A stretch of 64,000 bases of DNA from Microgenomates group bacterium Gr01-1014_7 (GCA_007376405.1 VMGD01000006.1:19337-83336), one strand, 5' to 3'. Counted from the stretch's first letter, positions 13,767 to 44,929 are shown. The notes: generated from the letters alone by a model not told the origin. Translations and numbers: made by a program.

Positions 13767-15926
13767 TCAGGTGCCAACCACTTCAAAGGTAGAGCCACCT
13801 GAGTTTTTGGAAACTTCAATTCTGACCGGGAATTCTTCTTTCAGTTCTTCCAGATGGGTGATGATAAGAATTTTTTCAAAGTCATTTTTTATTGTATCCA
13901 GCACTTCTACAATTCTGGTCCGACCCTCTGCATCTTGTGTTCCAAACCCTTCATCAATTACCAAAAATTGCAATTTTGCCCCGGCTCTTCTGGTTAAAAG
14001 TTTCGACAGAGCAATTCGGATTGCAAAATTTACCCTGAACGCTTCCCCTCCTGAATATAAAGAATACTCTCGTTCGCCCATCTCATCGGAAATAATAATG
14101 TCCAGGGTTTCCACAATTCCTTTTTCCCCGTCCTCCATTTTAGTTTTGGTTTCTTTTTGGGTTTGCAAGCGTATATTCATCCGGCCGGAAGTTAGTTTAG
14201 CCAGCAGTCTGTTGGCTTCCGTCTCTATTTCAGGAATGGCAGTTTCAATAATCATGGCCTGAATCCCCTTTTTTCCAAAAGCCAAAGTTAGCTCCTCAAA
14301 GCCTCCTTTTTCTTTTTCCAGATTATTTTTTTCGAGTTTTTTTTGCTCAAATAATTTTTCCAGCTGCTCGGAGCGGCTAATCAGTTCGGTTGCCTGTCCC
14401 AGTAAATTTCTGGCTTCTTTTTCTTCTGTCCTTAATTTGTTTAACTCCAGCTCTTTTTGATTAACTTGAATTTCCAGTTTAGTTAAATCATCAGCCAAAT
14501 TAGGCAGTTTATTTAAATCCTGCTCCAATTTTTCAATTTGGGATTTTTTATTTTTAAACAGTTCCCGCAGCTCTACCACCACTTTTTTCTCGGATTCTAG
14601 CGTTGCCTGGTCAGCAATCAGTTTTTCTCTTTTACCCTGCAGAAGTGAGATTTCCTGAAGTTTTTTTAAGGTTTCCTGGTATTTATGGTCATCTAATTTT
14701 ATGGAACTGCTTTCCGTTTGAAGTTTTAGGATTGCTTTTTCTTCATCATCAGTTTTAATCCCGCTGATAATTTTTTCTAATTCTTTAATCTTTAATCTTA
14801 AATCTTTAATCACTTTGTGCTTATTATCTTTTCCAATTTCTTGTCCGCAAGTTGGGCAATTGGCAAATTCTTTGCTCAAAGCTTCAAGATGGGATTTAAT
14901 TTCCTCTAATTTTTTTCCTAAATTTTCTCTTTCCTGGTTTTTTAAAGCCAGTGCCGATTTTATTTTAGTTAATTTATTTTCCAGCTCTAATTTTTTTTGG
15001 GAGAAAGTTGTATATTCTTCTTTTTCTTTTTCTAAAATCTTTAGTTTTTTTAATTTTTCCTCAAAGCCCGGCAGTTCTTCCAATTCTTTTTCCAGAGTTT
15101 TTATTTTGCCTGCTCTCATCTTTCCCTGGGAAAGAATCTCATTTAGCTCGGTTTGTAAACCAGTTAGAGTTTGTTTTAATTTATTCTGCTGTCCATAGGT
15201 GGCATTTAAGGCAGCTTTTGTTTCAATTTGGCTTTTTAACTCTTTTTCTAAAGAGCTAATTTTTATCTCTATTTCAGTTATTTTTTTCTCCGCTAAAATT
15301 TTCTTTTCTTGACTGGCTTCTTTTTGGGACAGTTCTGCCTCTATTTCCAAAAATTGGTATTCCAAAAGTTTTAATTTACTTGTCAAATCTTTAACTTTCT
15401 CTTTGGCTTTTTCTTCCAGCTTGTCATAATGGGATAGTCCCAAAATATCTGCCAAAATCCTTTTCCTGTCGGTTGGACCTTTGGTGGTAAATTCATCGGC
15501 ATGTCCCTGACGCAGGAATGAGGAATTGGTAAAAGTTTCAAAAGTAAGATGCAGAGTATCAATAATTTTTTGCTGGGTGGTTTTGATGATTCCTTCTGTT
15601 AAATTATTTTTGCCTGACCAAAATTCCAGCGCGCTTGAGCCCCCATGTTTTAGCGACCGCTGTCTTTTTACAATGAATGTATGTCCATCCAGTGAAAAGC
15701 TAAATTCGACAAACATATTTTGAGCGCCAAGATGGACAAGCTGGTCGGATGAATCCCCGGCCCGTGATGTCCCCCAAAGACACCAGGTTATTGCATCCAG
15801 CAGAGAGGATTTCCCGGCTCCGTTTGGTCCGGAAATAGCAGCCAGATGAAATTTAGTAAATCTAAGTTCCGGTACATTTTCTCCGTAACTTGTAAAATTT
15901 GATAACGTTAATTTAACTGGTATCAT
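13767..15926 (-). CDS. sbcC: SbcC-like SMC-family ATPase (exonuclease SbcCD subunit C)
   Basis: Walker A SGPNGAGKSSLLDAI, long coiled coil with central CPTCGQ zinc hook, signature SGGEAFRVNFAIRIAL, Walker B LVIDEGFG. Confidence 0.85.
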   Translation of the reverse strand: MIPVKLTLSNFTSYGENVPELRFTKFHLAAISGPNGAGKSSLLDAITWCLWGTSRAGDSSDQLVHLGAQNMFVEFSFSLDGHTFIVKRQRSLKHGGSSALEFWSGKNNLTEGIIKTTQQKIIDTLHLTFETFTNSSFLRQGHADEFTTKGPTDRKRILADILGLSHYDKLEEKAKEKVKDLTSKLKLLEYQFLEIEAELSQKEASQEKKILAEKKITEIEIKISSLEKELKSQIETKAALNATYGQQNKLKQTLTGLQTELNEILSQGKMRAGKIKTLEKELEELPGFEEKLKKLKILEKEKEEYTTFSQKKLELENKLTKIKSALALKNQERENLGKKLEEIKSHLEALSKEFANCPTCGQEIGKDNKHKVIKDLRLKIKELEKIISGIKTDDEEKAILKLQTESSSIKLDDHKYQETLKKLQEISLLQGKREKLIADQATLESEKKVVVELRELFKNKKSQIEKLEQDLNKLPNLADDLTKLEIQVNQKELELNKLRTEEKEARNLLGQATELISRSEQLEKLFEQKKLEKNNLEKEKGGFEELTLAFGKKGIQAMIIETAIPEIETEANRLLAKLTSGRMNIRLQTQKETKTKMEDGEKGIVETLDIIISDEMGEREYSLYSGGEAFRVNFAIRIALSKLLTRRAGAKLQFLVIDEGFGTQDAEGRTRIVEVLDTIKNDFEKILIITHLEELKEEFPVRIEVSKNSGGSTFEVVGT

Positions 15927-16037
15927 ATAAAGGTATGAATTTTATCAATTAAAAATCCTTCCATTGTTTTGCAAGTATAATCAACAAAGAGATATTTGAC
16001 AACGGTCCTATAATGTGATAGTATTGCAGTATTAAAT

Positions 16038-16628
16038 ATGCTAGAAACAGGAAATTATATTTTCCTTCCATATACTGATGCTGAAAAAGAAATCCTTATT
16101 GCAGATGGAGCTGCAGTTTATTTATTGGAAGGACAATCTATCGGTAGTCAAAGAAGGGGTGGAAGAAGGTTTTGGTCAGATTGGCACAAAGGCCATCCAA
16201 TAGAAGATATAACCTCAAGGATTTATGAAGTAGCTATTTGGCCAAATGATTTCTTTGTCCCCAGAACTTTTAATGAACCCAAACTCGAACAGGAAGAATT
16301 AGTTAGAGTTAATAGGGAGGAAACTCGATTAAGGTTAGGAATTCCAAATTATACAGAAATTCTACCGGAAGCCCCAGAGGTAACTGAAGTTCTATTTAAA
16401 CACTTTGATTTAACCAGAGTCCGTTTACTTGGGGCAAAATATAAAACAAAAGATGGACACTGGACTCACATTAGAACTAATACTGCTATTAATGAATCCG
16501 GTTCCGTCGTCGCCCATGTCGGTTGCTTCCGCGCTGTCTACGGTCCGGACGTCCACGACTGGTATGCCCGCGAGGGCGATCCTGATCTTGCTGCCGCCCG
16601 CTGGGGAGTGAAATTATTAAGGACTTGA
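16038..16628 (+). CDS. DGR1 target (variable) protein; VR at C-terminus
   Basis: 196-aa ORF whose last ~36 codons (16498-16605) are the variable repeat paired with the TR at 16928-17035. Confidence 0.8.
   Translation: MLETGNYIFLPYTDAEKEILIADGAAVYLLEGQSIGSQRRGGRRFWSDWHKGHPIEDITSRIYEVAIWPNDFFVPRTFNEPKLEQEELVRVNREETRLRLGIPNYTEILPEAPEVTEVLFKHFDLTRVRLLGAKYKTKDGHWTHIRTNTAINESGSVVAHVGCFRAVYGPDVHDWYAREGDPDLAAARWGVKLLRT
16498..16605 (+). repeat. DGR1 variable repeat (VR)
   Basis: 108-bp repeat at the 3' end of the target ORF. Differs from the TR at 16 positions: 15 where the TR has A, plus 1 non-A at the 5' edge. Ends in the GC-rich IMH-like gctgccgcccgctggg. Confidence 0.85.
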
Positions 16629-16927
16629 ATTTTGGTTTCTTGGTAATTTTGGATTTTTACTTCTTGGTTTTCCGAATTTTTTCTGATAAATTATCTAAAG
16701 TAGGCAGTGAGGAGTTAAACAAGTTTTTAGCTTCCGCCTATTTCTAGAATCTTTCATAGCCGGAGCCATGCACCAATTGGTTTATGGGGGTGCTTAAGGA
16801 AATTTTACTAGACACTCCGGATATTTCTCTTTGTTCTTGTACCAGACGGTGCAGGGCGGATAAAATACAGTGGAAAGAGCGATCAATCCACAGTGAGTTT
16901 TTGTACGGAGAGATATTCTGTAAACGG

Positions 16928-17035
16928 CCGGTTCCTACGTCGCCAATGTCGGTTACTTCAACGCTGACAACGGTCCGAACGTCAACAACTGGAATGCCCG
17001 CAAGAGCAATCCTAATCTTGCTGCCGCCCGCTGGG
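16928..17035 (+). repeat. DGR1 template repeat (TR)
   Basis: Non-coding copy of the VR. In the VR frame it reads GSYVANVGYFNADNGPNVNNWNARKSNPNLAAARW, with many AAC/AAT codons. Carries A wherever the VR differs. Confidence 0.85.
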
Positions 17036-17059
17036 TAGTTTCTAGAAATTTTAAAAGAT

Positions 17060-17420
17060 TCAGGGTAAGTTTTGCTTGGTGGAACGAATCCATCCGCCAA
17101 GCATCTTGCCTATTTCTTGCAAGTATCCTTGCAGCTCCAAATAATGCTTATCTTTTAAAGCAAGGCTATCTTTGGCAAGTCTTAAAAGAATTTTTAATAA
17201 ATCTAGTTTTATGCTTATTTGTTGTAAGGTAGATATTTTGTTATTTGAGGTTGGAATTGATAAAAGCAGTTCAAAGATTTCCAGGGTTAAATTATCCAAT
17301 TTTTGACCAAGAGTATACTTTTTAGTTTTAGGAAATTTAATGATTAAATAACTTAGGTTTTGATAAAAATCGTAGAGTTTAGCAAAAATCGGGATGTCAA
17401 GGCTAGAGACAGGCAGTGTG
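17060..17420 (-). CDS. avd: DGR1 accessory variability determinant (Avd-like four-helix-bundle protein)
   Basis: Frame open from about 17420 to 17060. Reads ...LDIPIFAKLYDFYQNLSYLIIKFPKTKKYTLGQKLDNLTLEIFELLL...YLELQGYLQEIGKMLGGWIRS, matching the four-helix-bundle/Avd consensus. No canonical in-frame ATG; the ORF caller started it at a TTG (17299). Confidence 0.6.
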
Positions 17421-17428
17421 TGTGTGTG
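17416..17428. repeat. (GT)6.5 dinucleotide microsatellite in the avd1-RT1 divergent intergenic region
   Basis: gtgtgtgtgtgtg lies directly downstream (minus sense) of an out-of-frame ATG (17432-17430). One extra unit would put that ATG in frame with avd1. Confidence 0.9.
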
Positions 17429-17442
17429 GCATTCTTTAAAAG

Positions 17443-18426
17443 ATGATTACTCATAAATCGTATTCTCAACTTACATCAGTAGAAAATTTATTTCAAGCTT
17501 GGAGTGAATTTAAGGTAGGCAAAAGAAAAAGAAAAGATGTGCAAGAGTTTGAAAGAAATCTGGAAGATAATCTATTTGATTTACGTTTTAAATTAAAAAC
17601 CAAAACATACAGACACGGAAACTATTTTGCATTTTATGTGCATGATCCAAAACAAAGGCATATTCATAAAGCATCGGTACAAGATAGGGTAGTTCACCAC
17701 CTGCTTTATCAATATTTATACACCCTATTTGATAGTAGTTTTACTTTTGATTCATATTCATGCAGGTTGGAAAAAGGAACTCATAAAGGGATATTACGGC
17801 TTGAGAATTTTTTGCGGAAAGTGAGCAGAAATTATACAGGGTCTTGCTGGGCGCTAAAACTGGATATAAGGAAGTTTTTTGCAAATGTTGACCACGATAT
17901 TTTAATGGAACTTTTAAAGAGAAAAATTAATGATAAAGATCTTTTGCGGCTGCTTAAAGAAGTAATTGATAGTTTTCCTCAGGGCATTCCTCTTGGTAAT
18001 CTAACATCCCAGATATTTGCCAATATTTATATGAATGAATTAGACCGGTTTATTAAACATAAACTTAAGATCAAATATTATATCCGCTATGCAGATGACT
18101 TTTTAATACTGTCTATTAATAAAAATAATTTGCAGTCTCTAATTAAACCAGTTGATAAATTCCTGCAAGAAAAATTAAAACTCGAACTTCATCCTAAAAA
18201 GATTATCCTAAAGAGATTTGATTGGGGAATAGATTTTCTAGGGTATATTGTTCTGCCTCAGTATATTTTACCAAGGACCAAAACTAAGAAGAGGATGTTT
18301 AGAAAATTAAAAGAGAAATTAGAGTCAGAAAATTTTAATCAGTCGCTGCAATCTTATATTGGGTATTTAAGTCATGCTAATGCATATAATTTATCGAACA
18401 AGATTGCCACGCAACGCTTCCAATGA
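17443..18426 (+). CDS. DGR1 reverse transcriptase
   Basis: 327 aa. RT motifs include IRYADDFLIL (YxDD) and the DGR-diagnostic PLGNLTSQIFANIYM (IGxxxSQ instead of the group II intron QGxxxSP). Confidence 0.9.
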   Translation: MITHKSYSQLTSVENLFQAWSEFKVGKRKRKDVQEFERNLEDNLFDLRFKLKTKTYRHGNYFAFYVHDPKQRHIHKASVQDRVVHHLLYQYLYTLFDSSFTFDSYSCRLEKGTHKGILRLENFLRKVSRNYTGSCWALKLDIRKFFANVDHDILMELLKRKINDKDLLRLLKEVIDSFPQGIPLGNLTSQIFANIYMNELDRFIKHKLKIKYYIRYADDFLILSINKNNLQSLIKPVDKFLQEKLKLELHPKKIILKRFDWGIDFLGYIVLPQYILPRTKTKKRMFRKLKEKLESENFNQSLQSYIGYLSHANAYNLSNKIATQRFQ

Positions 18427-18436
18427 CGAGTTGTTA

Positions 18437-18511
18437 ACTTTCTAAAATTTGGGCGGCGAATTTTTCCAGACTCTTTATTTTTTCCGCAGAGAATTTTTTG
18501 GCTTTAAAGTA
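18437..18511 (-). pseudogene. duplicated 3' fragment of sbcD (last 25 codons)
   Basis: Minus-strand translation YFKAKKFSAEKIKSLEKFAAQILES* vs intact SbcD C-terminus YFKAKKFSAEKIKTLEKFAAQLLES* (19119-19196). About 85% nt identity over ~75 bp. Confidence 0.65.
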
Positions 18512-18874
18512 TTAATTACCTGTTTTTCCGGTGATAATAGTGAGTTTTCCAATAAGAGATTTTCTGGTAGATTTATTTAGAAGAGATGTTAATTTTTTAT
18601 CTATCTGTTCAAGTGTTAAATTTGCAGACACTCCAATAACTCCGGTTGATTTACTTGTCGGGGCTAATGTTTTAAAATCTTTAATATTGAGAGTGACTAG
18701 GATTCTACTTTCCTTACCCGCGAACTGATAGACTTTAGGGTCTGGTAAGGCGCTTTGCCCATAATCACCGGTAATATGTTTAACATCAAATCGGCTATTT
18801 GTAATAGGCAAGCTTTGACGAAAGTAAAATCCCTCATCCAGCAATAGCTTGTGTTTGTAAAATCTCCGAGTCAT
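18512..18874 (-). CDS. DUF5615 family PIN-like protein (second copy)
   Basis: KLLLDEGFYF N-terminus and TLNIKDFK motif, similar to the 2328-2672 gene. Confidence 0.6.
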   Translation of the reverse strand: MTRRFYKHKLLLDEGFYFRQSLPITNSRFDVKHITGDYGQSALPDPKVYQFAGKESRILVTLNIKDFKTLAPTSKSTGVIGVSANLTLEQIDKKLTSLLNKSTRKSLIGKLTIITGKTGN

Positions 18875-19103
18875 TCCTAGATTGGCTTAAATCCTCAACC
18901 AATTCACTAATTGCGCCCTCAATAGTTTTTAGCGGTACCCAAGGATAGCCATCATGAATTGATTCAACAGTACAGCCTTCTTTTAAACGTTGAACTATAA
19001 CAGCAATTGGTATCCTGGTGCCTGCAATGCATGGTGCGCCACCCATAATATCTGATTTAGATAATATATAAGCTTTTTTCTTCATATGTTTATTATACCA
19101 CAT
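18834..19103 (-). CDS. DUF433 domain protein (second copy)
   Basis: ILSKSDIMGGAPCIAGTRIPIAVIVQRLKEGCTVESI matches DUF433. Overlaps the downstream DUF5615 gene by 41 nt. Confidence 0.6.
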   Translation of the reverse strand: MWYNKHMKKKAYILSKSDIMGGAPCIAGTRIPIAVIVQRLKEGCTVESIHDGYPWVPLKTIEGAISELVEDLSQSRNDSEILQTQAIAG

Positions 19104-19118
19104 TAATAGTATGACAAA

Positions 19119-20267
19119 CTAAGATTCAAGCAGTTGGGCAGCGAATTTTTCCAAAGTTTTTATTTTTTCAGCAGAGAATTTTTTTGCTTTAAAGTAACTC
19201 TGCAACGCCTCAACAGGAGTTAATCTTTCAACTTCTTCTTGTCCGTCTATTTTTAACCTTTCTTTTCTTTCAACATTCCGGGAAATTCCGGCAATGTAAT
19301 GAGCAGAGGATAGAGCCTTTTTAATTTTATCCATCTCCAAATTTTGCTCTAAATCAGCAGGGATATTTAAAGTTAGTCTAACGACTTTATCAGCTACATC
19401 ATGTTTTGAAATTTCATCTAAAATAGTTTGGGTAGGATTGGAATCGTTAGCTTTTAAGTCAATATCAATAGACAAAAACCTACGACAATTAGTAGGGATA
19501 AATTGGAAGTTAGTGGTCTTTGCAATTTCCACCAGACATATTCCTTTTTCTTCTTTTTCTTCGCCAAAATCAATCCTATGAGGGGAGCCGGCGTAAACTA
19601 CTAAAGGATCCTTGGATAAAACCTGGTGTTTGTGAATATGACCCAAAGCCACATAAGATAATCTTCTGTCTTGAAGTAAAGGTAGGGGGACTGTGACATC
19701 ATTTCCAATTGCCATACCTTTTTCTGAACCATAACTTGCGCCTTCTACCTCGCAATGCGATAAAAATATGGCAGGGGATTTTGGTGTAATTTTGTCATAT
19801 AAAGATTTTAATTTATCTCCAACGGTTTTGTATTCGTCTTTGTGTAACCAGGGTAAAGTTATAACTTGCAGAGTGCCTGATTTAGTGGGTATTTTTAAAA
19901 GTTCGGGTTTTCGGGAAACCCAGACATTATCTATTTCCAGGGCAGAGTAAATATCCAGAGTATTGGCTTTGCCCTCTGCATTGGGAGTGTCATGATTGCC
20001 TACAACTAAAACCACGGGAATTCCGGCTTTGGCAATTTTTTTAATTCTCTCTCCAAACCCCCTTTGCTGGGTTGGATTTGGATCACGGGTTTTGTAAGCA
20101 TCTCCTGCAAAAACCACAGCATCAACTTGATTTTCTATTGCCGTATCAACAATAAAATCAAAGGTTTTTAGAAAATCCAAAAGGCGGGTAGATAAACCTG
20201 TTTGCGGATCCAGTTTGGCATAATTTTCCATGCCAATATGAATATCCGCAAAGTGTAATAATTTCAT
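19119..20267 (-). CDS. sbcD: exonuclease SbcCD subunit D (Mre11-like metallophosphoesterase)
   Basis: MKLLHFADIHIG, GDAYKTRDP, GNHD and GHIHKHQ phosphoesterase motifs. Start placed at MKLL (20267); the 15 upstream in-frame codons are encoded by a GC-rich hairpin and are probably 5' UTR. Confidence 0.9.
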   Translation of the reverse strand: MKLLHFADIHIGMENYAKLDPQTGLSTRLLDFLKTFDFIVDTAIENQVDAVVFAGDAYKTRDPNPTQQRGFGERIKKIAKAGIPVVLVVGNHDTPNAEGKANTLDIYSALEIDNVWVSRKPELLKIPTKSGTLQVITLPWLHKDEYKTVGDKLKSLYDKITPKSPAIFLSHCEVEGASYGSEKGMAIGNDVTVPLPLLQDRRLSYVALGHIHKHQVLSKDPLVVYAGSPHRIDFGEEKEEKGICLVEIAKTTNFQFIPTNCRRFLSIDIDLKANDSNPTQTILDEISKHDVADKVVRLTLNIPADLEQNLEMDKIKKALSSAHYIAGISRNVERKERLKIDGQEEVERLTPVEALQSYFKAKKFSAEKIKTLEKFAAQLLES

Positions 20268-20377
20268 GTTTGGATTACGTCCCCCGAAGGCGGGAGGCAA
20301 GGTTCTGCACACGCGAAGTATAATATATCACATACTGAAGCGTGAAGCAGGTCCTTATATCATGGTAAAATGGGCAA

Positions 20378-21490
20378 ATGTTTGAACACAGAATAAAAAA
20401 ACTTAAAAATCAATTAGCAGAAGAAAATCTGGACGCGGTTTTGGTTTCTTCAGTTTCAAATATTACATACTTTACAGGGTATTCCAATTTTTCCAAAGAT
20501 GAACGGGAGGCGTATTTAATAATTAGCAAAGATTTTCAGTATGTTATTACTGACGGACGCTACACGGAAGCGGTAAAAAAACAAATTTCCCATTTTAGGG
20601 TTGCCGAAAGAAGTTTGTTTAAGGATTTAAAAATTGTAAGACTTGGGGTAGAAGAAAATAGTCTTACAGTTTCAGAACATAAGTTTTTCAAGAAGTATTT
20701 TAAAAAAATAAAAAAATTTAATGTTAGTAGAAGCATTAAAAGCGGAGATGAAATTAAGAAAATAGAAGATGCTGCAAAATTGGGGGACCGTGCTTTTGAA
20801 TTTGTTTTGAAAAAGATTAAAGAAGGCATTAGTGAGAAAGAATTAGCTTTTGAAATAGAACTTTATATTAAGAAAAACGGAGGAGATTTATCTTTCCCAA
20901 TAATTGTGGCTTTTGGTAAAAATTCATCAGTACCTCATCATCAGACTGGAGAAACTAAATTAGGTCCTTCGACTCCCTTCGGTCGCTCAGGACGAGGAGG
21001 ACAAATAATCCTCCTCGATTTCGGAGTAAAAGTTGATGAATATTGTTCCGATATGACCAGAACAGTTTTTTTTGGGAAAGCAACAGAGAAACAAAGAAAA
21101 ATTTATCAAACTGTTTTAGAATCACAAAAAAGGACTGTTGATTTTATTAATGAATCTATTAAAAATGGGAAACAAGTTCAAGCTAAAGATGTAGATAAAG
21201 TGGCAAGGAATTATATTATTTCCCGGGGATTCCCGTCTATACCTCATTCACTGGGGCATGGAGTTGGACTTGAGATTCATGAACATCCTCACTTATCACC
21301 TAAAAGCAAAGAAGAACTCAAAGAGGGAATGGTATTTTCCATAGAGCCGGGGATTTACATCCCGGGATTTGGCTCGCCTCGCTCGACGCGAGTCGAAGCG
21401 GGAGGAGTAAGAATTGAAGATTTATTTGTTTATCAAAGACAGGGCTTGAAACAAACTACCAATTCCCCAAAAGAAATAATTGAGATATAA
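20378..21490 (+). CDS. M24 family Xaa-Pro aminopeptidase-like peptidase
   Basis: LDFGVKVDEYCSDMTRT, HSLGHGVGLEIHE and EPGIYIPG...GGVRIED motifs. Carries two GC-rich in-frame insertions (20963-21000, 21371-21405). Confidence 0.85.
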   Translation: MFEHRIKKLKNQLAEENLDAVLVSSVSNITYFTGYSNFSKDEREAYLIISKDFQYVITDGRYTEAVKKQISHFRVAERSLFKDLKIVRLGVEENSLTVSEHKFFKKYFKKIKKFNVSRSIKSGDEIKKIEDAAKLGDRAFEFVLKKIKEGISEKELAFEIELYIKKNGGDLSFPIIVAFGKNSSVPHHQTGETKLGPSTPFGRSGRGGQIILLDFGVKVDEYCSDMTRTVFFGKATEKQRKIYQTVLESQKRTVDFINESIKNGKQVQAKDVDKVARNYIISRGFPSIPHSLGHGVGLEIHEHPHLSPKSKEELKEGMVFSIEPGIYIPGFGSPRSTRVEAGGVRIEDLFVYQRQGLKQTTNSPKEIIEI

Positions 21491-22112
21491 TTCACCCTCC
21501 ATGAATAAATGGAATCAACTGGTAAATAAAGAGTCAATAGATAAAGCTATTAAAGCTTTAAAGGCAAATGGCATTGATGCTAAATTTGTTGAAACTGCCA
21601 ATGAAGCAAAAAAAGAAGTTTTATCTTTAATCCCGGAAGGCGCAGAAGTTATGAACATGACCTCTGTCACTTTGGATACATTAGGTTTGCCGAATGAATT
21701 AAATGAATCAGGTAAATATAATTCTATCCGTAATAAATTAAACGCAATGGATTGGGCAACCCAAAGTTTAGAAATGCAAAAAATGGGGGCAGCGCCGGAG
21801 TGGGCAGTTGGTAGTGTCCATGCGCTAACAGAAGACGGACATGTGTTAATTGTTTCCAATAGCGGAAGTCAATTGCCGGCTTATGTTTACGGAGCAGGCC
21901 ATGTTATTTGGGTTGTGGGAGCACAAAAAATAGTTAAAAATACCGATGAGGGCATAAAAAGAATTTATGAATATGTACTGCCCCTGGAGGATGAAAGAGC
22001 CCAAAAAGCTTACGGGGTCGGAAGTGGAGTTAGTAAACTGTTGATTATCAATAAAGAAAAAACATCAGGTAGAATTACTATGATTATAGTTAATGAAGTA
22101 TTGGGTTTTTAA
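21480..22112 (+). CDS. LUD domain (YkgG/LutC-like) protein
   Basis: WAVGSVHALTEDGHVLIVSNSGSQLP resembles the LUD/DUF162 core. Weak assignment. Confidence 0.45.
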   Translation: MRYNSPSMNKWNQLVNKESIDKAIKALKANGIDAKFVETANEAKKEVLSLIPEGAEVMNMTSVTLDTLGLPNELNESGKYNSIRNKLNAMDWATQSLEMQKMGAAPEWAVGSVHALTEDGHVLIVSNSGSQLPAYVYGAGHVIWVVGAQKIVKNTDEGIKRIYEYVLPLEDERAQKAYGVGSGVSKLLIINKEKTSGRITMIIVNEVLGF

Positions 22113-41608: not shown

Positions 41609-42574
41609 ATGAAAAAACTAACTGAAATTGAGCAAAAAAGTAAATCAGGCCTTAAATTGTCACAGGATGAGCTGATCTTTTTATATGAAATAGATTCATC
41701 AATTGAGGGATTTGGATACGGCGATGATCCAAGAGTAAAGGAGCTGCGTTTTCAGAGAAAACCGGAAGAAGATATGCTAATTATTTTTGGTTCCGAGCCG
41801 GACCAGATTGCCGGATCAGCCGGGGGAATCACCGCAAATACCAGAGCATATGTTGGCCCACTGGAAAAAGGTATTTTTGACAAATTTGAACAATTTGGAA
41901 TAGAGCATATTTATACCTCTTTCCCTGAAGGAAAAATAAGAAGGGAAACTGTTGAAATTGGGGGAACAGACTTTAAGCAGATAGCTCAAGAATTAGAGGA
42001 TAAACTTAATATAATAGATACCCTAACTTGGGAGAAAACAGGAGAGATTCTTAAACAGGTTGAGGGCGGATCAGTTCAAATTAGTGCTGAGACTACTCAA
42101 TTTTTAAGGCAACTATTTGAAAGGCAGATCAATGTTTCAGGATATGCTCTAGATATGCTTAAAAATTCGGAATTCACCACCAGTCCCACACCTATAAACA
42201 TAGATACAGTTAGACTAAAAATTTCTGCACTGGACCTTAAGGGTACACCCACTACAGATCAAGTATATGCCAGAGCTAACGAACTAGGACTTGATCTTTG
42301 TCCAGCAGAAGTAGGTCCCCACAAAAGATTTAAAGATACTAATGAACCAATGGGAGATTGGGAATATATTGCTATGAAGCAAATGACTGACCGCGGTGGC
42401 CATCTGGATGTCTTCGTGCTCGGTCGTGATGGCCGTGGTTTGTGGTTGGCTGGCCGTTGGGCGGATCCTGACCATGGGTGGCCTCCCGAGGATGAGATTG
42501 TTTTTCGTCTCCGCAAGTCTGAAACTCAACCACTTAAACCCTCTGGATTCTTTTCCAGATTTTTGAGCCGTTGA
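41609..42574 (+). CDS. DGR2 target (variable) protein; C-terminal CLec-like VR
   Basis: 321 aa. The C-terminal TDRGGHLDVFVLGRDGRGLWLAGRWADPDHGWPPEDEIVFRLRK is the VR. Its frame is open upstream to 41432 without another start codon. Confidence 0.8.
   Translation: MKKLTEIEQKSKSGLKLSQDELIFLYEIDSSIEGFGYGDDPRVKELRFQRKPEEDMLIIFGSEPDQIAGSAGGITANTRAYVGPLEKGIFDKFEQFGIEHIYTSFPEGKIRRETVEIGGTDFKQIAQELEDKLNIIDTLTWEKTGEILKQVEGGSVQISAETTQFLRQLFERQINVSGYALDMLKNSEFTTSPTPINIDTVRLKISALDLKGTPTTDQVYARANELGLDLCPAEVGPHKRFKDTNEPMGDWEYIAMKQMTDRGGHLDVFVLGRDGRGLWLAGRWADPDHGWPPEDEIVFRLRKSETQPLKPSGFFSRFLSR
42386..42516 (+). repeat. DGR2 variable repeat (VR)
   Basis: 131 bp. Differs from the TR (42847-42977) at 20 positions, all with A in the TR. 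Confidence 0.9.
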
Positions 42575-42846: not shown

Positions 42847-42977
42847 ACTGACCGCGATGGCCATCTGAATGTCTTCAAGCTCAATCGTGATGGCAATGGT
42901 TTGTGGTTGAATGACAATTGGGCGAATCCTGACAATAGGTGGAATCCCGAGAATGAGATTGTTTTTCGTCTCCGAAA
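42847..42977 (+). repeat. DGR2 template repeat (TR)
   Basis: In the VR frame it reads TDRDGHLNVFKLNRDGNGLWLNDNWANPDNRWNPENEIVFRLRN, with eight AAT codons. Confidence 0.9.
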
Positions 42978-43334
42978 CTATTTCTTTCCGCGTCTAACCG
43001 GCGCGGTTTTTTGTAGACCTAAACTTCTCTTCCAGCCCCAAAGCATCTTTCCGATCTCATCCAGCTTAACTGCAATATCCCCATATTGTTTATGGGAAAT
43101 AAGTTTAGCTTCCCAAGCAGTAGAAATTAGGAATTTAATAATATCTACTATAAAAATACAATCGGATAATTTATCTGCCTTTTTCTCTTTTTCGGTAAAA
43201 TATGCAGTATATGATAATTCTAAAAGGTCGAGGAATTTATTTTCTATCCTTGAGCCTGTTGTAAACCGCCCGGACCGGGGAATATGAGGAGAAATATTCA
43301 TCCAAATCAAATATCCTTCCTTGATCCGGTTCAA
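42978..43334 (-). CDS. avd: DGR2 accessory variability determinant (Avd-like four-helix-bundle protein)
   Basis: 118 aa; C-terminal half FLISTAWEAKLISHKQYGDIAVKLDEIGKMLWGWKRS matches the four-helix-bundle/Avd family. Its stop codon abuts the TR end. Antisense to the TR and RT, as in DGR1. Confidence 0.7.
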   Translation of the reverse strand: MNRIKEGYLIWMNISPHIPRSGRFTTGSRIENKFLDLLELSYTAYFTEKEKKADKLSDCIFIVDIIKFLISTAWEAKLISHKQYGDIAVKLDEIGKMLWGWKRSLGLQKTAPVRRGKK

Positions 43335-43351
43335 TATGGAAGATTTTTCAT

Positions 43352-43370
43352 GAGAGAGAGAGAGAGAGAG
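43352..43370. repeat. (GA)9.5 dinucleotide microsatellite at the 5' end of DGR2 RT
   Basis: tgagagagagagagagagag directly follows an ATG at 43350. The RT reading frame runs through the tract but is +1 relative to that ATG. Confidence 0.9.
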
Positions 43371-43495
43371 TTAGGGAGCTTTTCCATGCCAGATATAATT
43401 CTATCATTTCACTGGAAAATTTACTGGAATCATGGCATGAATTTTTAAGAGGTAAGAAAAACAGAAAAGATATTGCAACTTTTTCAATCCGGTTT

Positions 43496-44362
43496 ATGGA
43501 TAATGTCCTTATTTTGAACGAGGAACTCTTAAAAAAGACATATCAGCACGGAGGTTACTATGCTTTTAAAATAAACGACCCGAAACCAAGGAATATCCAC
43601 AAGGCCAATGTAAGGGATCGGATTGTCCACCATGCCATCTTTAGAATTCTTTACCCTTACTTTGAGAAAAAATTTATCTTTGATTCATACTCCTGCAGAT
43701 TAAATAAAGGCACCCATAAATCTATTTACAGATTCAGGGATTTATCAAGGAAAGGGTCTGTAAATAATACAAAACCCCTTTGGTTATTAAAAGGAGACAT
43801 CAGGAAGTTTTTTGCCAATATTGACCACGATATTTTAAAAAATATTTTACAAAGATATATTATTGATGAAGAAATTTTGTGGTTGATGGGAGAAATTATT
43901 GATAGTTTCCGGCCTGGTCTGCCACTTGGCAATGTAACCAGTCAGCTTTTTATTAATATTTATTTAAATGAATTTGACCAGTTTGTTAAACGGGATTTGA
44001 AAGTTCACAGTTATATCCGATATTGTGATGATTTTGTGATTATTCACACGGATAAAGTTTATTTAGAAGGACTTATCCCTAAAATATCACAGTTTTTAGA
44101 AGATGAATTAAAACTTTCACTTCATCCGGATAAAGTTTTTATTAAAAGACTCTCTTTGGGAGTGGATTTTCTGGGATGGGTACATTTTTCCCATCATCGG
44201 GTTTTAAGAACTGCTACCAAAAAGAGGATGTTCAAAAGGCTCAAGGGTAATCAACCTAACGAGACGCTAGCCTCTTATTTGGGCTTACTGAAACATGGCG
44301 ATACCTATAAACTTGTAAAAAAATTAAGGATGATAACTACGGAAAATGATTTAAATCATTGA
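43496..44362 (+). CDS. DGR2 reverse transcriptase (intact ORF from an internal ATG; conserved N-terminal region continues upstream to about 43325)
   Basis: RPGLPLGNVTSQLFINIYL (DGR IGxxxSQ motif) and IRYCDDFVII (YxDD). Upstream in-frame codons ...FHARYNSIISLENLLESWHEFLRGKKNRK align with the N-terminus of RT1 (THKSYSQLTSVENLFQAWSEFKVGKRKRK) but lack an in-frame ATG in the reference sequence. Confidence 0.8.
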   Translation: MDNVLILNEELLKKTYQHGGYYAFKINDPKPRNIHKANVRDRIVHHAIFRILYPYFEKKFIFDSYSCRLNKGTHKSIYRFRDLSRKGSVNNTKPLWLLKGDIRKFFANIDHDILKNILQRYIIDEEILWLMGEIIDSFRPGLPLGNVTSQLFINIYLNEFDQFVKRDLKVHSYIRYCDDFVIIHTDKVYLEGLIPKISQFLEDELKLSLHPDKVFIKRLSLGVDFLGWVHFSHHRVLRTATKKRMFKRLKGNQPNETLASYLGLLKHGDTYKLVKKLRMITTENDLNH

Positions 44363-44370
44363 AACAGAGG

Positions 44371-44631
44371 TTAGCGATAAGTTTGGGTAGTACGGCGTTT
44401 GATATCAACAATAATAACCTCTTTATTTTCTTCATCAATAAAATAAAAAACTCGATAATCACCGACTCTGATTCTATATAATGGAGGAATCCTGGAGGCA
44501 ATTTTATCAAATCCTCTGGGTTTTGGATCATTTTTGAGCTGAACTATTTTTTTGGCAATTAGTAACTGATAATCTTTTGGAAATTTTTTTAAAGCTTTCT
44601 GTGCCCGAGGTGAGTAAACGAGGTTATGCAT
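44371..44631 (-). CDS. RelE/ParE family toxin
   Basis: 86 aa; KKFPKDYQLLIAKKIVQLKNDPKPRGFDKI...YRIRVGDYRVFYFIDEENKEVIIVDIKRR fits the RelE/ParE fold pattern. Confidence 0.75.
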   Translation of the reverse strand: MHNLVYSPRAQKALKKFPKDYQLLIAKKIVQLKNDPKPRGFDKIASRIPPLYRIRVGDYRVFYFIDEENKEVIIVDIKRRTTQTYR

Positions 44632-44929
44632 CTAATTTAAGCTTCTTCATCAACTTTTCATGAGAAATACCCTTGCCTTTTTTAACAACGTCGAGTTCTT
44701 TATATAAAGAATCAATATAACCGGGTTGAACCGTATCTTCTTGAATATCTACCAGCTCTAAATAGGTATTTAAATCCAGTAAAATAGCTTTAGGTTCGCC
44801 ATGTTGGGTAATAATAACTTGATTTCCTTTGCGAGGCATGTTATCTAGAATACCGCTTAAATCCCGACGCAGATCATCCGCACCGATAAAGTTCTTTTTA
44901 AGCATGTCGGACAGAGATATTTGTTGCAT
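44624..44929 (-). CDS. Phd/YefM family antitoxin
   Basis: LSGILDNMPRKGNQVIITQHGEPKAILLDLNTYLEL is a typical Phd/YefM N-terminal domain. Overlaps the toxin start. Confidence 0.7.
   Translation of the reverse strand: MQQISLSDMLKKNFIGADDLRRDLSGILDNMPRKGNQVIITQHGEPKAILLDLNTYLELVDIQEDTVQPGYIDSLYKELDVVKKGKGISHEKLMKKLKLDA

Follow-up and report, generated by a model that had tools for sequence, protein, structure and literature searches.

A dinucleotide repeat in the avd start region as a probable contingency switch of diversity-generating retroelements in a Microgenomates bacterium

How should a gene be read that is intact throughout its body but has no start codon? The question is raised by avd1, on the minus strand of 64,000 nt of DNA from Microgenomates group bacterium Gr01-1014_7 (GCA_007376405.1, VMGD01000006.1:19337-83336; this whole stretch is hereafter the window). 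The gene belongs to the first of two diversity-generating retroelements (DGRs) in the window, DGR1 and DGR2. Its open frame (17060-17446, minus strand, including the stop at 17060-17062) encodes a four-helix-bundle protein of the Pfam family bAvd (PF22296, E=2.3e-20) and has no lesion other than that at the start. Inside its 5′ coding end lies a (GT)6.5 tract, GTGTGTGTGTGTG, at 17416-17428 of the plus strand, which is (CA)6.5 on the avd sense strand. Our original prediction, made from this DNA alone, held that the length of this tract gates the DGR in the manner of a contingency locus, and the analysis reported here leads us to regard a repeat that gates avd1, and hence the DGR, as the probable explanation. 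Sequence inspection and a scan of the window confirmed the tract and found only two dinucleotide tracts of at least 6 units, one at the junction of avd and the reverse transcriptase (RT) gene in each DGR, where a back-of-envelope calculation gives an expectation of about 0.05 for any such tract in the window.

The avd1 frame was originally thought to be open from about 17420 and to lack a canonical start. It is in fact open upstream to 17446, directly after a TAA at 17449-17447 (minus strand), and at 6.5 units it indeed contains no canonical start. The first ATG, GTG or TTG in frame is a TTG at 17299, inside the four-helix fold, and its product would be only 79 aa. Two minus-strand ATG codons are found upstream. 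The first, ATG-B (17432-17430), stands immediately before the (CA)n and, as predicted, is out of frame at 6.5 units, where it reads MPHTHTACL and then a stop. It is in frame with Avd at 4.5, 7.5 or 10.5 units (MP(HT)nLPVSS...), and the addition of one CA unit yields MPHTHTLPVSSLDIPIF..., a protein of 124 aa. The second, ATG-A (17454-17452), had been missed; it lies in the third frame, reads MSNHLLKNATHTH... and shares a 12-nt divergent overlap with the RT1 start. With ATG-A the Avd frame is entered at 5.5 or 8.5 units (MSNHLLKNA(TH)nTLPVSS...), the repeat being placed directly after ATG-B and 9 codons after ATG-A. Two homologues, P0006 and P0007, begin MSNHLLK... and MSNHHLK..., as from ATG-A, and the overlap of ATG-A with the RT1 start, ATGAGTAAYCAT, is kept in loci L010, L011 and L024. 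The N-terminal peptides expected of Avd1 are therefore MPHTHT... or MSNHLLKNATHT.... Two upstream start codons in two frames make three length classes, only one of which, 6.5/9.5 units, is OFF. When lengths were simulated, 6.5 or 9.5 units gave no ATG-initiated Avd1, and RT1, whose ATG is 14 nt from the upstream tract, was unaffected at every length tried. The avd1 of the window is in the OFF length class. One of the original arguments carries no weight, namely that a tract one unit from in-frame in both DGRs is unlikely to be coincidence: it is arithmetically empty, because any out-of-frame dinucleotide tract is either +1 or -1 unit off.

Does the tract vary in nature? An exact-protein look-up with RT1 recovered a 61 kb contig in ENA, ERZ27284378:k139_116835, from an independent assembly of the same strain. 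This contig carries (GT)7.5, ATG-B is in frame, and the gene is called as a 124-aa bAvd (P0001), such that the full-length protein expected from one added CA unit exists exactly, as protein and as DNA. Across 7.4 kb (window 14445-21874) the two assemblies show three differences: one GT unit and two adjacent bases of the DGR1 variable repeat (VR1), at 16578-16579, which are GA in the window and CT in k139_116835 and stand opposite adenines 17008-17009 of the template repeat (TR). Thus, the two genotypes differ only at two predicted hypermutable sites. The VR1 change is recent and adenine-specific; it is consistent with recent activity of DGR1, and represents a single event. A related strain (ERZ27284375, locus L088; Avd 97% identical) also has 6.5 units. 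Moreover, three Hainich groundwater assemblies (contigs of 1-2x coverage) with 100% identical flanks carry tracts of 6.5, 7.5 and 9.5 units; the ATG is used at 7.5 units and a GTG in another frame at 6.5 and 9.5. An exact-flank pattern search of JGI metagenome contigs for the strain's tract returned 0 further copies. The length of the DGR1-type tract is therefore polymorphic among near-identical genomes. As a separate observation, the L088 contig (about 500-655) departs from the window within the TR1 region, after '...GATTGCTCTTGC', which could reflect a different TR or a chimeric contig end.

These comparisons bear on the possibility that the missing start is an artefact of assembly or sequencing, or the decay of avd1 to a pseudogene in a dying DGR. 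The sequences are metagenome consensus assemblies, repeats are error-prone, and both genes of DGR2 are out of frame as well (see below). A 13-nt dinucleotide run is, however, well within Illumina accuracy, and 6.5 units were found in two independent assemblies (the window and L088) and 7.5 in one, with differences of 2 and 3 units in another population. Unrelated studies contributed 55 loci in which the same pattern is seen, and the body of avd is otherwise undamaged. Mismatches in the TR/VR pairs are nearly all adenine-specific, and between assemblies VR1 has changed at TR adenines. We consider artefact or decay very improbable.

If the tract is a switch, homologues should tell where Avd begins. 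With the in-frame Avd1 as query, 501 relatives were recovered, the named ones belonging to Curtissbacteria, Blackburnbacteria or Patescibacteria. Avd homologues start at an ATG or GTG upstream of the tract and then read through it as (HT)n: an N-terminal (HT)2-5 stands immediately ahead of the conserved DIPIF motif in most of the 120 listed of the 501, and the residues after the tract vary (LP, QD, PIV, AYS, DSN). A sizeable class of the homologue calls is truncated to 95-99 aa, and these are candidate OFF alleles. In other clades the equivalent place is taken by (SL)n or (ER)n from (TC/GA)n, or by PPP from poly-C, and repeat-less relatives start 1-5 residues before DIPIF. The comparison proposed at the outset therefore came out in favour of a switch: dinucleotide tracts recur next to avd/RT starts, and the starts are upstream of the tract, not downstream. 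That unrelated repeats and peptides (HT, SL/ER, PPP) occupy one position, with repeat-less relatives alongside, argues that selection acts on the repeat as DNA, and this seems, on comparative grounds, to be so rather than selection on the tail as peptide. The converse, that a functional (HT)n tail, for example a metal-binding one, is what is selected in Avd and that its length variation is neutral, would fit the presence of (HT)n in most close homologues and an alignment (A1) in which it is nearly invariant (H3, T4, H5 and T6 at least 90%). Yet A1 was made only from called in-frame proteins, two thirds of the unbiased DNA loci are out of frame, and SL, ER, PPP or nothing stands at the equivalent place in other clades. 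We find this explanation hardly credible.

The unbiased DNA loci come from a census that drew on GTDB species representatives and on JGI and ENA metagenomes, with avd located by tblastn and not through gene calls. It comprises 145 de-duplicated loci with at least 130 nt upstream of the motif; the larger tblastn sets held roughly 550 and 570. All three kinds of repeat found, (CA)4-20, (AG)12 and poly-C (8-11 bases), stand at one position, some 5-27 codons 5′ to DIPIF. Scoring a locus as ON where an in-frame canonical start was present, 12 of 36 loci with a dinucleotide tract were ON and 24 OFF, as were 8 and 11, respectively, of 19 loci with poly-C, compared with 89 ON and 1 OFF among the 90 loci with no repeat. 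Hence a canonical in-frame start ahead of the fold is missing from 35/55 avd genes with a repeat and from 1/90 without one (Fisher p=3e-18). Every one of the 35 OFF loci has an out-of-frame upstream ATG with an open path into the tract and an Avd frame open through the tract, and all 35 are restorable by slippage. The 36 dinucleotide loci use the three frames 12:14:10 (chi-square p=0.72). The position of the repeat is thus conserved family-wide with its frame randomised. Clusters defined at 90% identity or more contain, side by side, full-length alleles, ±3-unit alleles, alleles in another upstream frame and truncated ones. By number of contigs the truncated calls, which are candidate OFF alleles, are the most frequent; one of 90 aa (P0429) is found on 29 contigs versus a total of 7 contigs for four forms of 147-149 aa. 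OFF thus appears, from these counts, to be the common state. This pattern is what translational phase variation by slipped-strand mispairing classically leaves in comparisons of relatives, and avd1 itself combines a tract in the coding region, length polymorphism and an in silico toggle between full-length and truncated products.

Poly-C tracts deserve separate description. In other Avd clades, runs of 9-11 bases follow the avd ATG directly or lie close to it, some 20-60 nt 5′ of the DIPIF codon, and encode MPPP... if the frame is right; they are found in L009, L020, L021, L028, L033, L034, L040, L058, L066, L080, L097, L112, L119, L146 and L169. The ATG is mostly out of frame, and L009, L033 and L058 have another in-frame start. 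A complementary GGG is seen in RT N-termini, e.g. P0273, P0274 and P0287.

The census also speaks to constitutive recoding, in which the out-of-frame arrangement is normal, Avd is made at a low level by RNA-polymerase slippage or ribosomal ±2 slippage, and DNA variation is incidental. About two thirds of the consensus genomes are out of frame, a P-site tRNA would re-pair perfectly on (CA)n after a 2-nt shift, and the poly-C of 9-11 bases in other clades are plausible sites of transcriptional slippage. VR2 and TR2 of DGR2 are, moreover, cleanly adenine-specific although both avd2 and RT2 are out of frame, and one OFF frame is common to seven related loci. Set against this, one third of loci are plainly in frame and the frames are used uniformly, whereas programmed frameshifting would keep one frame relation and none is kept across the 36 dinucleotide loci. 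No stable RNA structure lies downstream of the tract (minimum free energy -3.9 kcal/mol, z=+0.57 vs shuffles), length polymorphism is seen directly in DNA, and we know of no established bacterial recoding mechanism that works by 2-nt slippage on dinucleotide repeats. Recoding is thus unlikely, if the strongest of the competing explanations.

Alternatively, the tract could be 5′ untranslated region (UTR), with Avd1 starting downstream at a non-canonical codon, either CTG 17416-17414 or the ATC/ATT of DIPIF. The reading frame would then not depend on tract length, which would at most tune translation or the expression of RT1. Repeat-less homologues beginning M-x(1-4)-DIPIF show that the fold can do without the N-terminal tail, and in some repeat-bearing homologues (P0441, P0448) gene callers choose a TTG placed directly 5′ of DIPIF. 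In addition, 14 nt separate the tract from the RT1 ATG, and a promoter-like site at 17360-17389 would put the tract in the RT1 5′-UTR. However, the avd1 of the window is without an in-frame ATG, GTG or TTG before codon 40 of the fold, no alternative start downstream is conserved and the residues following the tract vary, the upstream ATG frame enters the tract in all 35 OFF loci, and ON alleles read through it from ATG or GTG. The promoter-like sites are also at chance level: a promoter and terminator scan of 16600-17800 gave four against 3.8 expected, and none spans the tract. For the same reason the suggestion that tract length alters promoter spacing is unsupported. We therefore judge an untranslated tract to be quite improbable.

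DGR2 has a repeat of different composition at its own avd/RT junction, and here a single tract serves two genes. The 5′ coding ends of avd2 (42978-43387, minus strand, start ATG 43387-43385; bAvd PF22296, E=4.1e-14) and RT2 (43284-44362, plus strand; PF00078, E=3e-20; conserved N-terminal region from about 43391) diverge and overlap by 38 bp, and within this overlap, at 43352-43370, is a repeat that reads (GA)9.5 on the plus strand and (TC)n on the strand of avd2. It is flanked by the minus-strand ATG 43387 (MEKLPN(SL)n...) and the plus-strand ATG 43350. At (GA)9 avd2 is out of frame and the conserved N-terminal region of RT2 has no in-frame start, leaving only a 288-aa product from ATG 43496. 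For avd2, ATG 43387 is in frame with 8 or 11 units and a different ATG (MIELYLAW...) with 7 or 10, and ATG 43350 or 43284 enters the RT2 frame at 8 or 11. In simulation, (GA)8 or 11 gave full-length Avd2 and full-length RT2, (GA)7 or 10 gave Avd2 from the other ATG with a truncated RT2, and (GA)6, 9 or 12, the class of the window, left both truncated. The original prediction had this tract gating RT; by frame arithmetic it would do so and more, since loss of one GA unit, to (GA)8, restores the frames of both avd2 and RT2. N-termini of the Avd2 family take the form M..(SL)1-6..ASILNRIKEGYL, and one member, P0134 (MEKPPNSLSLSLSLKNSIL), closely matches the frame-corrected Avd2, which shows that ATG 43387 is the real avd2 start. 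The closest homologue of RT2, P0242, begins MEFSERERERVKRPCHITFNSIISLENLL; other relatives have (ER)5 at the N-terminus, or GGG, the complement of the avd poly-C, and RT2 itself is present among the homologues as P0241. Conservation of 'MRRNIHPNQISLF' upstream of RT2-type tracts was considered as proof of RT coding and set aside, since this stretch is antisense of the conserved Avd helix 1. The second assembly of DGR2, ENA contig k139_281945, stops matching the window (L006 6658-6826) at about 41474, upstream of the DGR2 target gene, where its gene call has 388 aa and that of the window 321 aa; either a structural variant or a break in assembly could account for this.

Taken together, these data suggest the following model. 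The (CA)n in the avd1 5′ coding region would be a hypermutable simple-sequence repeat that gains or loses CA units by slipped-strand mispairing at replication. At 4.5/7.5 units Avd would be made from ATG-B, at 5.5/8.5 from ATG-A, and at 6.5/9.5 not at all. Because DGR cDNA synthesis and retrohoming depend on Avd, the tract would act as a heritable, reversible ON/OFF switch on mutagenic retrohoming of VR1, where an OFF phase freezes a useful variant of the target protein and an ON phase resumes diversification. The (GA/TC)n of DGR2 would be a three-state switch (both genes on, avd only, both off), with the window in the both-off state. In the reconstituted BPP-1 DGR, inactivation of Avd abolishes retrohoming, with activity falling to about 1e-9 (PMC12875486), and by this reasoning an OFF avd should silence the DGR studied here. 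OFF alleles would be expected to yield no functional Avd, and switching is probably frequent and reversible within a population; by analogy, DGR activity may track the phase of the tract. The contingency-type gating put forward at the outset is supported by lengths that differ in near-identical genomes, by homologues that start upstream and by the signature of the census. Support extends beyond it to two starts in two frames, a shared tract in DGR2, occurrence throughout the family in DGRs of the candidate phyla radiation (CPR), and OFF as a common state. In its widest form, that repeats at divergent avd/RT 5′ ends are a lineage-wide conserved, heritable, reversible and mostly-OFF switch of CPR/Patescibacteria DGRs, with three states where the tract is shared, the proposal is in our judgement somewhat likely.

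Several findings weigh against a switch. All tract lengths are from consensus assemblies, at the low coverage given above for Hainich; for the window's own tract the same-strain comparison is one pair of assemblies only, and the DGR2 tract is identical, (GA)9, in k139_281945, such that no polymorphism is seen there between the two assemblies. In the closest subgroup, all 7 loci (the window, L010, L011, L024, L093, L120 and L156) share one OFF frame, with ATG-A, the avd ATG, exactly 59 nt before the Ile codon of DIPIF. Fast random switching would predict less uniformity; the shared frame may represent the modal length of the tract, a default-OFF state that is favoured, or recoding. Furthermore, in P0441 and P0448, from the clusters of P0072 and P0058, the TTG right before DIPIF yields an Avd of 113 aa whatever the tract. 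This is the commonest called form there (26, 22 and 8 contigs), and the switch may be leaky or bypassed in these lineages. Weak initiation at CTG 17416-17414, or at the ATC/ATT in DIPIF, could likewise supply some Avd1, and the start of repeat-less homologues 1-5 residues before DIPIF indicates that the N-terminal tail is dispensable.

DGR1 and DGR2 share one layout, in which a target gene with its VR (plus strand) is followed by the TR (plus), avd (minus) and RT (plus). In DGR1, the target gene (16038-16628, plus) carries VR1 (16498-16609, plus) at its 3′ end, TR1 is at 16928-17039 (plus), and RT1 (17443-18426, plus; PF00078, E=9e-24) encodes a DGR reverse transcriptase of 327 aa with its start at the canonical position. 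TR1 and VR1 have 15 core mismatches, all of which fall on TR adenines, and a further T-to-G at either edge. In DGR2, the target gene (41609-42574, plus) holds VR2 (42386-42512, plus), whose partner is TR2 (42847-42972, plus), and 19/19 mismatches are at TR adenines. Each element therefore has an RT gene, a TR/VR pair with adenine mismatches and an Avd, and the homologues found for RT1 and RT2 are DGR-type RTs from CPR bacteria. In both, avd is inverted between TR and RT (16928-17443; 42847-43350), so a plus-strand transcript from TR to RT would run antisense through avd, and almost no intergenic sequence separates the divergent starts of avd and RT, so that each promoter must sit within the other gene. 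An Rfam scan of 16000-18600 gave no meaningful match. An alternative genetic code was rejected, as long open reading frames across the window read normally with table 11.

A toxin-antitoxin-like pair lies directly 3′ of each RT on the opposite strand (18512-19103 and 44371-44929), DUF5615/DUF433 after RT1 and ParE/PhdYeFM after RT2. The DGR1 cassette together with the DUF433/DUF5615 pair (18512-19103, minus) is flanked by sbcC-like (13767-15926, minus) and sbcD-like (19119-20312, minus) genes. As sbcC and sbcD usually form one operon, their separation by DGR1 looks like the insertion of a mobile DGR module.

Little has been described of how DGRs are regulated in their natural hosts, and an element that mutated its target without pause would lose useful variants as quickly as it made them. 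If the proposed switch operates, a repeat on avd, and sometimes on RT too, would be a simple answer to how DGRs are controlled; it would explain how beneficial VR variants become locked in, and the tract would decide which cells of a population run targeted hypermutation. It would then be the first case found of one stochastic diversity mechanism controlled by another. For annotation, many CPR avd and RT genes are probably recorded as truncated or missing, as expected in the OFF phase, and these clades will be misread by DGR surveys in which gene calls decide whether an element counts as 'complete' or 'active'. Conversely, tract phase could serve as a population-level marker of DGR activity in metagenomes.

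How does this arrangement compare with known systems? The DGR prototype is that of Bordetella phage BPP-1, with the order avd-TR-brt. As in BPP-1, there is an RT, an Avd, a TR/VR pair with adenine-specific mismatches and a VR at the 3′ end of the target gene. Unlike BPP-1, avd is inverted between TR and RT with its start overlapping or abutting that of RT, and a hypermutable repeat occupies the avd/RT junction. CPR DGRs have been surveyed (PMC5758913), and in the literature searched, which fell short of many subscription-journal papers, no DGR paper described control of avd or RT by a repeat.

Programmed frameshifting and transcriptional slippage, known for example from transposases of IS elements and from dnaX, likewise have upstream and downstream reading frames in different phases that meet at a slippery repeat. 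Here, by contrast, homologues do not keep one frame relation, a stimulatory structure is absent, and the length varies in DNA. Much closer are simple-sequence-repeat contingency loci, such as the poly-G/C tracts of Campylobacter and Neisseria and the dinucleotide and poly-C tracts of Helicobacter (PMC11868660, PMC3315296). In common with these, the repeat is in the 5′ coding region just past the start, its length shifts the frame ON or OFF, near-identical strains are polymorphic in length, frames are scattered among relatives, and the gene body is intact. Those loci concern surface, restriction-modification and glycosyltransferase genes of host-associated pathogens, whereas here the hosts are CPR/Patescibacteria and the gene is avd, whose product, the accessory variability determinant, is essential to a system of targeted hypermutation, plus the RT gene in DGR2. 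The present case also differs in having two starts in two frames, so that two of the three length classes are ON for avd, and, in DGR2, a tract common to two divergent overlapping genes.

Phasevarions, in which phase-variable mod methyltransferase genes control regulons, offer a further parallel, as do the contingency loci described in phages (bioRxiv 10.1101/2025.10.21.683753). In each, a repeat switch sits atop a higher-order system, a single slip alters a whole programme, and the logic is one of bet-hedging. The difference is that here the programme is itself a generator of diversity, and the repeat, instead of acting directly on gene expression or host range, would thus exert second-order control over mutability.

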